Both the position numbers and the translations under genes were made by a program. DNA of 64,000 nucleotides from an uncultured Lachnospiraceae bacterium (GTDB lineage: Bacteria > Bacillota > Clostridia > TANB77 > CAG-508), in the NCBI GenBank assembly GCA_964497325.1, contig CAZCCM010000001.1, forward strand, positions 10,103 to 74,102, written 5' to 3'. A model generated the notes under the pieces. The model was given only the letters and a program-made list of their open reading frames with translations. It made no database searches and was not told the DNA's origin. Shown piece by piece: positions 1 to 26,478 of the stretch (the stretch's first letter is position 1; each line of letters starts with the position of its first letter).

Positions 1-3000
1 TATTGAAAAATACTAAATCTCCTGGTATAACTTCTGAATAATCCCTACCCTTTACTGGAGCATTTAAAAATTGATCAGCAGCAACACGATATAAATTAGG
101 CACAAGTCCAAGAGTTGTTTTGTATATATACCAAACTAATCCTGAACAATCAAAAGTATTTGGTCCTATAGCTCCCCATACATATGGCTTTCCAAGATGT
201 GAATATGCTTCTTCAATAACGCTTCTAGCTGCTCCTGATGCATCTCCATAATATCCTCCTCCAGTAGTTCCATAAAGTTTTAAACTAGCTTTATTTAAGA
301 AAGTAGTAATTTGTTTGTTTACGGCTAGTCCCCATTTGTCATCACAGTAATGTGGTGCTATTTCATTTACAAAATATCTATTATCACCCCAATAATAATC
401 TCCATGCATCAATTCAGCAAATTGTTCAAAAGCTGTATTATAAGTATCATATAAATCCCATGAAACAGCTCCAATACCATTTCCATTAGCATCTTTTATT
501 CCAGTATCATACATTATACCTCCACCATAGTTACCTTGTATGCTAAAAATATTATTATATTCTCCACCATACTGTTGTCTTATGTCAAAATCAAGGCCAT
601 AACCTGCATTTCCTCCTCCACATTCTATTACAGATACTGCTGCTGCATATATTGCATTTACTTCATACTTTTCTTGCATATTTAATAATTCTTGAGCATG
701 TTCTTGTAGTATTGGAAATCCTTCTAATATTTCTTTAAATAAGTCAACATCATCAATTATATTTGGTTCTCCATCTTCTGTTTTAGTATAATAGTCATCC
801 ATTATTTCTATATAAAAACCTGGAGTTAGTACAATGTATTCATCTACATTTTCTATAAAAGCTTTATCAACATCTCTCATTATAATTCTAAGATCCGATT
901 CTGTTGTTTTTCCAATTATTGTTCCTTCTTTTATATAGTCTCCTATATGATTTTCTGATCCAGATATTGAAATATAATTTGGCGCATCTACTTTTGCTTG
1001 TTCTATTGCTTCTGCTTCTTTTCTTGTTTCTTCATCTTGTATTTTCTTTAAATCACTACTTTTTATTTGTTTAACATAACTAGAGTTTTCTTTATTGTTA
1101 ACATCACTCGGTATTTCTACTTTTATACCTTCTATTGTAATTTTATTTCCTTTAATATATCTGCTGTCCTCTTTTTGTTTTCCATGTTTTTCTTTTCCTG
1201 ATATTACTCCCTTATATTCAGTTTCATAAAAGTCTTTATATGGATCTGCTTCTTTTGGCGCTGTTGCATCTATTGCTGATATTGTTATATAGCCTACATC
1301 TTTATATACTACTTTCTTTAATTCTCCATCTTTATCTGTGATAAGCCTTTCTATATCCTTTGTGCCAATTTCTTCTATCTTTCCTGTTACTGGTGAAAGA
1401 ACATTTATATCTTCTTCAAATCCTTCTCCATGAGTTTGTTTATTTTCTTTTATTTCCTCTTCATCATATATTTCTTCTAATGTTGCCTTAGAAGGTACAA
1501 ATACTCCATATCCCTCTGGATCTTGATGTATTTCTGCTGAAGGCCAAAATTTTGGTGTTTTATATTCACTTAAAGGCCACCTCAATACTCTTCTAACTGG
1601 ATCCCTCAAATCTTCCTTTTCAAAATATCCTAATTCAACATATAACTCTTTTAAATCTCTTAATATGTATTGGGCATCAATTGAGTTGCTTCCTTCTAAA
1701 ACTTCAAAAGCTGCTGTTAAATCTGTATCTGCTTCTACTAAAGATTTTAAAGAAGAATTTTGCTCACTTTTAGCTTTTTTTCTATCTTCATTATTTTCAT
1801 CTGCTCTTTCAACACTTCCATCATATTTATACCACTCTATATTAGTAAAAAGATTTTTTGTTCTTGCATTTGTCATTCCTCTTCTTCCTTCTTGTTTCTG
1901 TGTGGCAGTAATTGATTGATTTTCATGTATATACACGTAGTCAGAAAATCCTTCGTATCCATCTCCTTCTTCTGATTCCAATGGCTCGCCTAATCCATCA
2001 TTTTTTTCAGTTGTTTTTATTTCATATGCAGACCATTGATTTTCTTTTATAGTTTCCATTTCTGGTGTTAAAATCTTTTTTCCATCTTCTTCCGAAATAT
2101 TATATTTAGACCATTTTTCGCCTGTTAATAAATAGTAATCCTTATCTTCTAATACATACTCTTCCCCTTGATCTAAATAGAAATATACATCTCTAAACCA
2201 ATGATTTTCAGAATTTTTTATCATTGGAATATATGTCTTTACTTTACCTGTTTCTCCAAAAATCGTATTTAATTTGTTATAAAAATCTTCTGAATTATTT
2301 ACTTCAGCATTTTTTGAACTAACATCTGCAACAACATTATATAAGCCGTATTCATCTATAAAAGCATGATTTTTACCCCATCTACCTTTTTTAACAACTT
2401 CTCCTCTTAAGTCATTAATTTTACCATCTTTACCAAAATATACTGAGCTAAAATCATAATCTCCTTTTTTAACTTTATATTTAGTTGTAGTTTCACCATT
2501 TTTTGTTTTTTCTATTTCTTCCACTAAATTAAAAACTGGAGTTCCATCACTATTTAAAGAACCTGATTTATTTAAACTTGAAGAAGTTGATTTTTTAGGA
2601 CTGATCTGAACATATTGTCCACTTTCTGTTCTAAAAAAGGCTCTATGCTTTTCTTCTTCAGATTTTACTTCCTGTACTGGTATAAAATCATCCTCAGTAA
2701 AAATATATGGATTAGTATCATATTCTTTTCCAATTTCAATATCTCTATTTAACAAATATACTGTACCATTCACTGTTGTTGTTTCAGGAACTAAAAAATT
2801 AACTGTTGTTTTAATATCCGTTTTTAATAATAATATATTTAAGATTGGCTTTTTATAATATAAAACATCATTGTTATCTAATTGATCAAAAACATCTACA
2901 CTTTCTACCGTGCAAGCTTCATCTGTGTAAGCTTTTGTTCCTTTGGCTATTTCTCTAACTAAATCTGGTGATCTTGTACCTTGATGTAATGCAACAAAAA

Positions 3001-4027
3001 GTTCTAAAGGTAATCCATATTTTCCTGGCCATCCGTCCATCTGGAAAGTATATGTTCCTCCAAACATATTTCTTTTAATATATAAAGTTCCTAAATTTCT
3101 ATCTGTCTTTATAGCTTCTCTAAAAACACCTTGAAAAAAGTTTTCATCTGTTGCCAACTCATTGTCATCCCAAGTTCCCACTCTAAAGTTTAATAAACCT
3201 CTCATGTCTTGTTTAGTAAAAATACTTGAAATAATTGATTTATTTCTAATTCTATAAGTATATGCATCCATTCTTGCATATAATTCTATTAAATGTGGAA
3301 ATTTTTTGTCTTTTATTTTATCTGGTAAAGATATTATTTCACCATCTTCATTAAAATTGCTTGGCTCTAATTTTTCATTAATATATCCTTCTGCATATAA
3401 GTCATATCCCCTATTTTGAATAACGTTAGCAGTTCTAGAAAATTCTTTATCGCCTAGCATTTTATCTTCTCCAAAGAAATAATCTCCTAATTCTTTAAAA
3501 AAGCCTTTAACAAGCTCCCCTGTGCTACCTGGGATATAAATTAAAGACACTACAATTCCAACAAGCAAAACAACAGCTGCTATAGCAGCAAATGTCCCTA
3601 TAAATATCATTATTGAAGGACCTAAACCCATTCCTCCTAATAAAGCTCCTATCCCTTCGGCTCCTGCTCTAGTTGCCATTCGTTCTACACCTTCTCTTTT
3701 TAAAGCAGACAATGCAGCTTTATCTGCTTTTCCTCTAGTTGCTTTTTTACCTATTCCCGATGAAGAAAATTTTTGAGGAGATTCAGATATTGAAGATTTA
3801 GGTCTTGACGGTTTAGTTACTTTAGATTTAGGCTCAACAGATTTAGCATTTAAATCTTTTGAATCTTTTTTTGAGCTTTTATTCTCTTCAATTTTGTCTT
3901 TTATATTTTTAATATCGTCACCAATTTTTTGTGCATCTTGAACATTATCAAGAACGTCTCTTTTTTGAGAATCATCAGAACCAATAACCTCATCATTCTC
4001 AACATTGTTAGAATTATCATCCATTTA
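1..4027 (-). CDS. Giant membrane protein with a C-terminal NlpC/P60 peptidoglycan endopeptidase domain (CwlT/TcpG-like T4SS-associated hydrolase). The start codon is at 4027 and the 3' end is cut off by the window start, so more than 1340 aa are present.
   Basis: Minus-strand ORF with ATG at 4027-4025, 7 nt after AGGAGAAA, and no stop before position 1. The N-terminus is acidic/K-rich, followed by a TM segment (GIGALLGGMGLGPSIMIFIGTFAAIAAVVLLVGIVVSLIY). Reverse-complement translation of about 60-330 gives 'FDCSGLVWYIY' (NlpC/P60 catalytic Cys motif) and a downstream 'PGDLVFF'. The region before it, 'AAAVSVIECGGGNAGYGLDFD', may be a lysozyme-like domain (not confirmed). Confidence 0.6.
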
Positions 4028-4056
4028 ATTTTTCTCCTTTATTTTAATTTTTGCTT

Positions 4057-25603: not shown

Positions 25604-25975
25604 ATGAAACATTTTTTTAAAAAAATACTATTTACTTTACTAATTATCTTTACTTTAATAATACTTTCTAGAAATAATGCTTTTGCCTTTAGTAATTTAC
25701 AAAACGATATTCAAGACCCACGTAAAACACCTCCAGAAGGAAAAATACTTGAAATTGTAAATCCAATTTTAACTTTAATACAAATTATATCAATTGGTAT
25801 ATCAACTGGATTAATTATTATTGATGGAATTAAATTATTAACAACTACAGATAATTCTGAAAAAGCAAATCTTAAAAGAAAGCTTTTTTATTATATTGTT
25901 GGAGGTATCTTAGTTTTTGCACCTACAACAGTATTTAAATATTTATCATCACTTTCAACATCAATAATAAAATAA
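25604..25975 (+). CDS. VirB2/TrbC-like T4SS pilin paralog
   Basis: 123 aa with the same signal-peptide, TM, charged-loop ('TTTDNSEKANLKRK'), TM layout. Confidence 0.45.
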   Translation: MKHFFKKILFTLLIIFTLIILSRNNAFAFSNLQNDIQDPRKTPPEGKILEIVNPILTLIQIISIGISTGLIIIDGIKLLTTTDNSEKANLKRKLFYYIVGGILVFAPTTVFKYLSSLSTSIIK

Positions 25976-26103
25976 TACTTTTTCTAAAATAAATATAACA
26001 AAAAAGCAATATTTTTATTAATCTTTACAAGATAAAAAGTTTATGTTAATATATAAATATACAAAAAATATATTATTAATTTGCAAATTAATAGGAGGAA
26101 AGA

Positions 26104-26478
26104 ATGAAAAAAAATAAAAAAAGAATACTAACAATAGTAATAATTGCTATTTCACTTATTACAATGTTTTTACCAACAATCGTAAACGCAACAAACACAC
26201 CAGTAATACCAAAACCTACTCCACCTAGTGATCCAAATTTATCTACTCTTGCAGAAAAAATTTTAGGATATGCTCAATGGCTTGGAATTTTAGTAGCAGT
26301 TGTAATGATAGTTTTCTATGGAATTAAATATTTTACTGCTGCACCTGAAAAACAGGGAGAACTTAAAAAAGCAATGTGGGGTTATTTATTAGGAGCTGTT
26401 GCTATTTTTGGTGCTTCTTTAATTTTAGGATTTATTTCTAAAGCTTTAAGTGCTGCGAGTGAAGGATTAAATATTTAA
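26104..26478 (+). CDS. VirB2/TrbC-like T4SS pilin paralog
   Basis: 124 aa with the same layout. The loop is 'FTAAPEKQGELKKAM'. It has a strong RBS 'AATAGGAGGAAAGAATG'. A candidate promoter 'TTTACA-N17-TAATAT' lies in the intergenic region at 25976-26103. Confidence 0.5.
   Translation: MKKNKKRILTIVIIAISLITMFLPTIVNATNTPVIPKPTPPSDPNLSTLAEKILGYAQWLGILVAVVMIVFYGIKYFTAAPEKQGELKKAMWGYLLGAVAIFGASLILGFISKALSAASEGLNI

Follow-up and report, generated by a model that had tools for sequence, protein, structure and literature searches.

The 64,000-nt stretch of DNA analysed here (the window: positions 10,103 to 74,102 of contig CAZCCM010000001.1, from an uncultured Lachnospiraceae bacterium placed in the Clostridia order TANB77, family CAG-508) carries in its first 26,478 positions a chromosomal locus for a type IV secretion system (T4SS) that is very probably domesticated and non-mobile. 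We propose that the apparatus, on contact with a neighbouring cell, transfers proteins or other macromolecules to or from it and does not serve relaxase-driven conjugation, a tentative assignment that draws on analogy and that we regard as quite possible. Domestication and this function, taken jointly, form what we consider on balance the probable explanation of the locus. The identities of the components, their paralogy and conservation, the chromosomal context and the absence of a type IV coupling protein (T4CP) and of a tyrosine recombinase within about 74 kb were computed here. The species scan used one genome per GTDB species and found at least 496 species-level genomes of uncultured Clostridia with a VirB4 relative; results on gene order and gene neighbourhood refer to the best 80 of these species loci.

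The motor is encoded on the minus strand by a 650-aa open reading frame (ORF; 20922–22874) which, judging from its sequence, is a VirB4-family ATPase with intact NTP-binding motifs: both Walker A (GKSGAGKS) and Walker B (VIVDEAW) are legible in the translation. This ORF exceeds the gathering scores of the Pfam families P-loop_TraG (69.6 bits), DUF87 (41.9 bits) and AAA_10 (34.7 bits). Its top NCBIfam matches are to the CD1110-type VirB4 (1.6e-58) and to Mbov_0397, the VirB4 of a Mycoplasma integrative and conjugative element (ICE; 2.6e-56), followed by TraC and VirB4/CagE, every one of the top matches falling in a VirB4/TraC/TrbE family, and a search of PDB sequences retrieved the solved VirB4 of Thermoanaerobacter (4AG5, E 6.6e-26). 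Immediately upstream on the same strand lies the gene of a 394-aa TrsD/TraC-N-like protein with one N-terminal transmembrane (TM) helix (22890–24074), assigned to PF26593 TraC-like in precomputed Pfam annotation. The Mbov_0397 model extends over both genes, its positions 103–304 falling in the 394-aa ORF (5.3e-6) and positions 310–892 in the ATPase ORF. Because the two ORFs cover successive stretches of one model, we consider VirB4 to be naturally split here into a TrsD-like N-domain and a motor; the same split was found in all 80 related loci and in the Clostridium plasmids discussed below.

The next gene (24076–24408, minus strand) codes for a PrgI/VirB3-like protein of 110 aa with two TM helices. 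Its match to PF12666 PrgI (E 1.1e-4) lies below the cut-off, and a gene of this type sits just upstream of the VirB4 genes in 78 of the 80 loci. VirB7, VirB9 and VirB10 families were not among the Pfam and NCBIfam matches of the locus proteins, and three traits of the mating-pair-formation class MPF_FATA were seen, namely the TrsD-like gene, the PrgI-like gene and a protein with an NTF2 fold. The locus appears to encode a monoderm T4SS of the MPF_FATA type, a class placement that rests on best HMM hits lying below curated cut-offs.

Four genes encode VirB2-like pilins of 123–141 aa, each with a signal peptide, two TM helices and a charged loop. The first gene of the main operon (24411–24836, minus strand; 141 aa) scores 26.5 bits against PF18895 (T4SS_pilin), 0.1 short of the cut-off of 26.6 bits, and the remaining three pilins score at or above it. 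These three form an array on the plus strand: 25190–25570 (126 aa; PF18895 27.4 bits, TrbC 26.9 bits; pilin-like family Mbov_0395, 4.8e-10), 25604–25975 (123 aa; 39.3 and 31.1 bits) and 26104–26478 (124 aa; 42.3 and 28.1 bits; Mbov_0395, 3.3e-5). Across all four proteins the scores for TrbC (PF04956) range from 27 to 31 bits. The operon-proximal pilin belongs to a distinct orthologue group next to PrgI, an orthologue in the same position having been labelled in 65 ORFs across the 80 loci, and the other pilins of the window are only 25–29 per cent identical to it. The number of pilin genes per related locus varies from one to eight, with a mean of 3.7, and in 73 of 76 loci all of them are co-directional.

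The inversion of the three-gene pilin array with respect to the operon was seen only in this lineage (the window, L007 and L009-type loci). A 19-nt inverted repeat surrounds the array (25257–25275 and 26495–26513; two matches against 0.21 expected). We considered an invertible pilin array and dropped the idea: the repeat is not conserved in the two relatives that share the inverted arrangement, its right arm looks like a terminator hairpin, and inversion would disrupt the first pilin gene. The AT-rich intergenic region that, by gene coordinates, separates the array from the main operon (24837–25189) is a presumed divergent promoter region; promoter-like matches do not discriminate in DNA so rich in AT, and neither promoter nor terminator scans gave a discriminating signal at 22–25 per cent GC.

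Four polytopic proteins, all encoded on the minus strand, are VirB6-like. Because neither these proteins nor 60 orthologues gave a direct match to Pfam TrbL/VirB6, the only such matches obtained being those to the pilin family PF18895, the assignment rests on a VirB6-like fold and on NCBIfam families of ICE TM proteins; a profile of the 60 orthologues had no match among PDB sequences. The four genes are mutually paralogous (phmmer E 1e-12 to 1e-35). Paralogue 1 occupies 19696–20929, and among its orthologues 45 of 60 match NF045848, the MMCAP2_0566 conjugal-transfer family, and 33 of 60 the Mbov_0396 ICE TM family. The second of the four genes encodes a 1064-aa protein (15163–18357) in which an M23 peptidase (Peptidase_M23, 92.5 bits; the metal-binding motifs HxxxD and HxH are intact and legible in the sequence) is fused to a VirB6-like TM domain, paralogous to the remaining VirB6-like proteins, and to a repeat-rich C-terminal tail. 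The third gene (12969–15182) encodes 737 aa, or 709 aa according to gene callers, with a long Lys/Glu-rich tail; it matches the Mbov_0396 TM family at 0.0048 over model positions 49–305 of 306. The fourth (9937–12870) encodes 977 aa with a 570-aa tail, and the third matches it at phmmer E 2.7e-35.

Long low-complexity tails are present in three VirB6-like proteins, two of which also contain coding tandem repeats. The in-frame repeats lie in the C-terminal tails at 9977–10132 (60 nt, 2.6 copies) and at 15262–15448 (33 nt, 5.8 copies, encoding 11-aa units of the KENKQTNNKS type) and are candidate length-variable regions. PF18895 was matched by 35 of the 60 orthologues of the first VirB6-like protein over a TM2-loop-TM3 hairpin (best E 2.7e-7); the pilin-like segment lies at residues 159–232 of L007:11670-12893 and at residues 133–195 of the window protein 9937–12870. 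From these matches the VirB6 paralogues seem to contain a pilin-like hairpin, which could bear on the docking of pilins onto VirB6 or on a shared origin of both.

Paralogue 1 is frameshifted by a 1-nt insertion near position 20375 (TTG CGG AGT AAT G), leaving one ORF of 238 aa (20213–20929) and another of 224 aa (19696–20370), whereas the orthologue of the closest species, L007, is intact, 408 aa long and aligns over both. An assembly error was ruled out, as the identical split is shared by seven independent assemblies from different runs. A programmed +1 frameshift at TTG CGG is unsupported, since the P-site tRNA, judged from the sequence, would lack slippery re-pairing. The second ORF opens at an ATG on a conserved VMIYL motif with GGAG 2 nt upstream; the gene, although split, may still be functional and no pseudogene.

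Three bitopic proteins accompany the VirB6 paralogues, all on the minus strand. The 313-aa protein (8279–9220) was modelled with a pLDDT of 86.8 as an NTF2-like domain with a beta-sandwich, and the model retrieved TcpC and the pIP501 protein TraM among many NTF2 matches; its predicted fold is consistent with the VirB8/TcpC/TraM class but not specific for it. A 193-aa protein (9276–9857) is a paralogue of the globular domain at the N-terminus of this protein, and the orthologue groups of the two cross-match among related loci; it is probably also VirB8-class, its fold being taken from the larger paralogue. The third, of 432 aa with an N-terminal TM helix (18398–19696), has no known fold and no match in Pfam or NCBIfam scans; it is a conserved operon member, with orthologues in 49 of the 80 loci by tblastn. 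At the end of the operon (1–4024) lies the gene of a giant membrane-anchored wall hydrolase, 1391 aa in full, of which the last 50 aa extend beyond the window. Towards its C-terminus a weak glucosaminidase/muramidase-like region (Glucosaminidase, 18.7 bits, below cut-off) is followed by an NlpC/P60 domain (NLPC_P60, 41.9 bits), which we take to be the same domain pair as in CwlT of ICEBs1.

Almost all genes of the window are minus-strand genes; those of the minus-strand operon, between 24836 and position 1, overlap or have gaps of 0–98 nt between them. The first-pass annotation, made from the sequence of the window, had placed VirB4, the VirB3-like protein, four pilins, four VirB6-like proteins and the M23 and NlpC/P60 domains just where we find them; to its gene list we add only that the 394-aa ORF at 22890–24074 is re-assigned as the detached N-domain of VirB4. 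Its description of an almost gapless run of T4SS genes holds for the spacing and fails for the content, since 4057–8235 is taken up by housekeeping-type genes (an MscS channel, a PASTA-containing class B PBP and a DnaJ-domain TM protein) interposed before the giant hydrolase gene. In the related loci L018 and L063 the hydrolase orthologue adjoins the 313-aa gene or is one small gene apart from it. The suggestion that pilins are unusual in monoderm T4SSs has been partly overtaken, both by the pilin arrays of Patescibacteria (PMC12102498) and by a survey of over 1000 Gram-positive conjugative plasmids, nearly every one of which is reported to have VirB2-like PrgF (bioRxiv 10.64898/2025.12.18.695078).

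The GC content is 0.22–0.31 within the locus against 0.21–0.30 outside, with no step, and the GC skew is negative throughout the window. No match to a T4CP was obtained among the window ORFs of at least 100 aa when the coupling protein of the closest plasmid relative was used as a phmmer probe (E ≤ 10), a probe search detected no tyrosine recombinase in the 64 kb, and the window contains no tRNA gene. No relaxase was recognized in general Pfam and NCBIfam scans of the window and of 10 kb to its left, made with no relaxase-specific probe. That 10-kb extension, read from a 210-kb metagenomic contig (ERZ4239753 NODE_6), holds a 318-aa gene, a C1 peptidase, a GH3 enzyme and a DUF2232 protein and no mobility genes, and the window itself includes 37 kb upstream of the operon; the absence of mobility genes therefore applies to about 74 kb and not to the rest of the genome. 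The other large ORFs of the window, read from their translations, are Mfd, NrdD, MurD, RarA-like, RuvA, PBP2, MreCD, RadC and similar, besides a few unknowns and two giant surface proteins described below.

Around the 80 related loci the same T4CP probe gave a single match. This ORF (L074:1-1656; PF02534, 2e-71) lies about 8 kb upstream of VirB4, past an M16 peptidase pair, has lost its N-terminal TM part and shows stop codons directly before Walker A; it may be a relic of a conjugative ancestor or of an unrelated element. A tyrosine recombinase occurs within 10 kb in two of the 80 loci. The first-pass annotation had seen neither a compositional discontinuity nor a coupling protein or recombinase, had described the flanks as housekeeping genes and had preferred a domesticated apparatus to a recent ICE. 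The composition, the probe searches in the window, the 10 kb beyond position 1, where transfer and integration genes were likewise not seen, and the flanking genes (the M16 peptidase pair, YqeY, Spx/ArsC and Lgt) all agree with that account. The comparison of synteny that it had called for shows a conserved locus, gene order being common to all 80 related loci examined. Domestication fits this broad synteny as well as the missing mobility genes, the housekeeping flanks and the conservation of VirB4.

More than 6,900 relatives of VirB4 were detected; the best 120 of them, each of about 650 aa and 66–100 per cent identical, come from metagenome-assembled genomes of uncultured Clostridia. Within a library clustered at the level of 50 per cent identity this VirB4 clade has one full-length representative at 60 per cent, the next relatives being at most 41 per cent identical. 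The best 80 loci include those of Clostridium sp. CAG:354, Ca. Scatovivens, Ca. Merdicola and a closed chromosome of 1.8 Mb (OZ006973.1); Ca. Scatovivens and Ca. Merdicola belong to order TANB77, family CAG-508 (PMC13106387). The locus is present in every assembly of the window's species that was found. The conserved order, seen in all 80 loci examined, runs from the pilin array through the operon-proximal pilin, PrgI, the TrsD-like protein, VirB4, a VirB6 of 400 aa, the 432-aa protein and the M23–VirB6 fusion to further VirB6 genes, NTF2-type proteins and the giant hydrolase. The flanks are shared by many species as well, with the M16 peptidase pair at about -6 kb in 23 loci and YqeY, Spx/ArsC and Lgt recurring.

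Within this conserved frame the components evolve at very different rates. VirB4 is 66–90 per cent identical across the best 80 species loci, whereas pilins and VirB6 proteins are 25–50 per cent identical across related loci. Compared with L007, the window has a VirB4 that is 90 per cent identical, while Mfd (70 per cent), TrmH (64 per cent) and MscL (75 per cent) are less conserved; pilins are 41–54 per cent and VirB6 proteins 43–64 per cent identical. Over 20 loci the mean identity of VirB4 is 78 per cent against 55–58 per cent for the adjacent M16 peptidases, and the divergences of VirB4 and M16 peptidase co-vary positively (Spearman 0.35–0.40). The T4SS ORFs are intact across the 80 species loci. 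This conservation gradient reads, at the sequence level, as a signature of vertical inheritance. Purifying selection on the VirB4 motor is very strong. Pilins, VirB6 loops and repeat tails, which are the exposed parts, diverge fast and are multiplied, a pattern to be expected where a surface machine encounters variable partners or the immunity of a host.

As for the origin of the system, the closest relatives in the plasmid collection searched are C. beijerinckii p1 (NZ_CP107023; VirB4 identity 40.7 per cent) and C. botulinum p12/29 (NZ_KT897275) with its relatives (40.0 per cent), and the named VirB4 relatives at 30–36 per cent identity (Heliorestis, Peptostreptococcaceae, Caldanaerobacter) are also Firmicutes. 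From these relationships the system would seem to be a mating-pair-formation module of clostridial origin that became fixed in the chromosome. The similarity of the window VirB4 to those of the two plasmids (40–41 per cent) extends over 97–98 per cent of the length, the TrsD-like proteins match at E 4e-26, and the plasmids have the core order of the window: pilin, PrgI-like, TrsD-like, VirB4 and VirB6-like proteins, a peptidase, three bitopic proteins and a giant wall hydrolase. However, the plasmid T4SSs have one pilin-like gene and one long VirB6-like gene, in contrast to the four pilins and four VirB6 proteins of the window, and a C39-like peptidase takes the place of M23. In C. beijerinckii p1 a coupling protein with a TraM-recognition domain, recombinases and a ParM-like gene lie nearby, and genes of these kinds are absent from the window locus. 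An alternative genetic code, as in a UGA-recoding Mollicute or in Gracilibacteria, can be excluded as the origin because long ORFs are obtained under table 11.

The closest functional analogue, in our comparison, is the relaxase-less pilin-array T4SS of Patescibacteria. It comprises VirB4, TrsD, PrgI, VirB6 and 2–11 divergent VirB2-like pilins with hydrolases downstream (PMC12102498; bioRxiv 10.1101/2025.01.22.634366), lacks a relaxase and is essential if Ca. Southlakia epibionticum is to grow as an epibiont (SEML1_0006-0019) (PMC10633639; PMC12102498). A review of December 2025 still describes it as unique among monoderms in being required for growth on a host and in its potential to form conjugative pili (PMC12857230). 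Set against the published descriptions, the window locus has by its sequence a gene content of the Patescibacteria type. Like that system it is chromosomal, monoderm and, by its class placement, MPF_FATA-derived, with a separate TrsD-like N-domain protein and PrgI/VirB3 ahead of VirB4, with VirB6 and arrays of divergent VirB2-like pilins matched by PF18895, and with peptidase and lysozyme-type hydrolases downstream. In both, no linked coupling protein was found, no relaxase was recognized in the window, and the system is kept across a whole lineage of uncultured small-genome organisms. Unlike it, the window locus belongs to the class Clostridia of the Bacillota and has four VirB6 paralogues with long repeat tails, an M23–VirB6 fusion and a 1391-aa hydrolase.

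When the clusters of 20 distant VirB4 representatives were looked up, no link by name to the candidate phyla radiation (CPR) emerged, the names being those of Firmicutes or none. The Firmicutes relatives at 30–41 per cent VirB4 identity argue against membership in the CPR VirB4 clade, as far as identities can indicate this. Since the nearest named relatives, some of them plasmid-borne, are Firmicutes, the domestication looks independent of that in Patescibacteria. Literature searches (TANB77 with type IV secretion; VirB2, monoderm and Clostridia) returned no description of such a system in Clostridia. A paper on a ‘conserved pilin’ of TANB77 (PMC11680825) was considered as a prior description and set aside, as its subject is a Tad (type IVc) pilus cluster and neither T4SS nor VirB is mentioned in it. 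It is the combination of chromosomal fixation across a Clostridia lineage, pilin arrays, four repeat-tailed VirB6 genes and an M23–VirB6 fusion that is unusual.

Other T4SSs resemble the locus in part. The MPF_FATA systems (pCF10 Prg, pIP501 Tra, ICEBs1 Con, the C. difficile CTn2/CD1110 type and the Mycoplasma ICE with Mbov_0395–0397) have in common with it VirB4, a PrgI-type VirB3, a VirB6 equivalent, a PrgF-type VirB2-like pilin, VirB8-fold NTF2 proteins and bifunctional wall hydrolases. These conjugative systems, however, are mobile, each with a T4CP, a relaxase and only one gene apiece for pilin and VirB6. The Rickettsiales rvh system and the T4SSs of Anaplasma and Ehrlichia belong to reduced-genome organisms and are chromosomal and non-conjugative, with tandem VirB6 paralogues bearing large hydrophilic extensions and with multiple VirB2 genes. 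Four VirB6 paralogues of Ehrlichia are the subject of a paper cited in PMC12857230. The rickettsial T4SSs are diderm P-type systems with VirB7–11 and VirD4 and are unrelated in sequence; the likeness in VirB6 multiplication and tails is an architectural convergence only. The archaeal DNA importers Ced and Ted are each a minimal set in which a VirB4-family ATPase is joined by a VirB2-like pilin and a VirB6-like membrane protein; neither is known to have a relaxase or a coupling protein. Their ATPases have weak P-loop similarity to that of the window (CedB 3.3e-7, against a cut-off of 700 bits; CedD 3.4e-7), and no CedA-type protein was matched in the NCBIfam scan of the locus. We know of no wall hydrolases, PrgI, TrsD or VirB6 multiplication in these importers.

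With no linked T4CP or relaxase recognized, canonical conjugation is unlikely, and the locus would rather be the descendant of a mating-pair-formation module of a clostridial plasmid or ICE that became fixed in the chromosome and was thereafter inherited vertically. On this scenario the module would have lost its DNA-processing and coupling functions while its pilin and VirB6 genes multiplied. We infer the order of assembly, the substrate, the direction of transport and the partner as follows. The PrgI/VirB3-like two-TM protein and the TM-anchored TrsD-like protein would dock VirB4 at the membrane, where the polytopic VirB6-like proteins would form a platform. On this platform VirB4 would polymerize the VirB2-like pilins, extracted by it from the membrane, to give a short pilus or conduit. 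Local opening of the thick wall would fall to the giant muramidase-like/NlpC-P60 hydrolase and to the M23 domain that is fused to one VirB6, and the NTF2-fold bitopic proteins would scaffold the channel across the wall, so that proteins or other macromolecules could pass to or from a cell in contact. This assembly model follows knowledge of T4SSs summarized recently (bioRxiv 10.64898/2025.12.18.695078; PMC12857230).

Among the explanations that we weighed, contact-dependent translocation is favoured, followed by DNA import or exchange, an adhesive pilus and, last, an ICE or its remnant. The module is clearly derived from conjugative machinery, and a frameshifted VirB6 gene, the N-terminally truncated T4CP of one related locus and the recombinases near two others would suit an ICE, or a decaying remnant, with relaxase, coupling protein and integrase beyond the examined sequence. 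Such an element is largely refuted and very improbable, given a window free of tRNA genes and of breaks in GC or skew, some 74 kb without a T4CP or tyrosine recombinase, a gene order kept between shared housekeeping flanks in many species, ORFs intact across 80 species loci and a VirB4 whose divergence co-varies with that of its less conserved housekeeping neighbours. A pilus serving adhesion or immunomodulation would bind mucus, epithelium or microbes without translocation, its divergent pilins providing antigenic or receptor variation. This would account for the numerous and divergent pilin genes of each locus and for the fastest evolution in exposed parts, and the Tad surface pilins of TANB77, part of another system, stimulate TLR4 (PMC11680825). 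We nevertheless consider it improbable: the full translocon is kept (VirB3, VirB4, several VirB6, VirB8-class proteins, two wall hydrolases) with a hyper-conserved ATPase, which is more machinery than adhesion alone needs, and TANB77 already has a dedicated Tad pilus (PMC11680825).

Relaxase-independent import or exchange of DNA, similar to archaeal Ced/Ted or to mycoplasma-type chromosomal transfer, would supply DNA or nucleotides to a reduced genome or permit recombination in it. The triad of VirB2, VirB6 and VirB4 without T4CP fits the composition of Ced/Ted, the Mycoplasma ICE proteins Mbov_0395, 0396 and 0397 are among the nearest curated families for VirB4, the pilins and VirB6, and one complete genome of a relative, noted above, measures only 1.8 Mb. 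Against this, the CedB and CedD matches amount to weak P-loop similarity (3e-7), genes for competence, recombination or DNA binding are not linked to the locus in the window or among its recurrent neighbours, and two wall hydrolases, NTF2 scaffolds and multiple long-tailed VirB6 proteins are not, to our knowledge, features of Ced/Ted. Import of DNA or of a macromolecule has been proposed by the authors who described the analogous system of Patescibacteria (PMC12102498). For the window locus we hold DNA import or exchange to be unlikely, although less so than an adhesive pilus.

Several observations weigh against contact-dependent translocation by a domesticated T4SS, the reading that we prefer. 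Every VirB4 equivalog model scores under its curated cut-off for the 650-aa ORF, and the identities of PrgI and VirB6 rest on sub-threshold HMM matches combined with fold and synteny. The disruption of VirB6 paralogue 1 in this species means that not every part is indispensable. A T4CP or relaxase elsewhere in the genome is possible; in Patescibacteria most VirD4 homologues lie far from virB4 (PMC12102498). Finally, the closest plasmid relatives (L094 and L095, the plasmids NZ_CP107023 and NZ_KT897275 named above) are typed as ‘non-mobilizable’ by MOB-suite, and this T4SS lineage may therefore pair with a relaxase family that current tools do not recognize.

Outside the T4SS, two further features of the window deserve mention. 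A 554-aa ORF (37315–38979) between MurD and the RarA-like ATPase has no Pfam family; its GGGKDS motif suggests a PP-loop ATPase, which appears unrelated to the T4SS. At 43153–55513, 17 kb away from the T4SS, lie the genes of two adjacent giant surface proteins, each with a signal at the N-terminus and a TM anchor at the C-terminus; one (2429 aa) has no Pfam match, the other (1696 aa) has one SdrD_B-like domain, and both are candidate adhesins.

TANB77, an order of uncultured gut Clostridia, has been reported as the most consistent microbiome marker of the response to checkpoint immunotherapy, in a paper that deals with its Tad pilus only (PMC11680825). Relatives of the window locus placed in this order carry, besides the Tad pilus, a second envelope machine, a T4SS whose motor is better conserved than the adjoining housekeeping genes. 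A look-alike of the Patescibacteria system in Bacillota would make the domestication of a relaxase-less T4SS with pilin arrays a recurrent route in small-genome, hard-to-culture bacteria. It opens the way to co-culture experiments on partner dependence, provides candidate surface antigens and offers a second, phylogenetically independent system for questions of transport. A more far-reaching idea, which we put forward as speculation with the odds well against it, is that TANB77 and perhaps neighbouring reduced-genome Clostridia depend on the domesticated T4SS for exchange with a partner cell, bacterial or host. If this were true, a T4SS-dependent lifestyle like that of Patescibacteria would have arisen independently and convergently inside Bacillota, the resistance of TANB77 to cultivation would be explained, and the repertoire of pilins and VirB6 proteins would set the range of partners.

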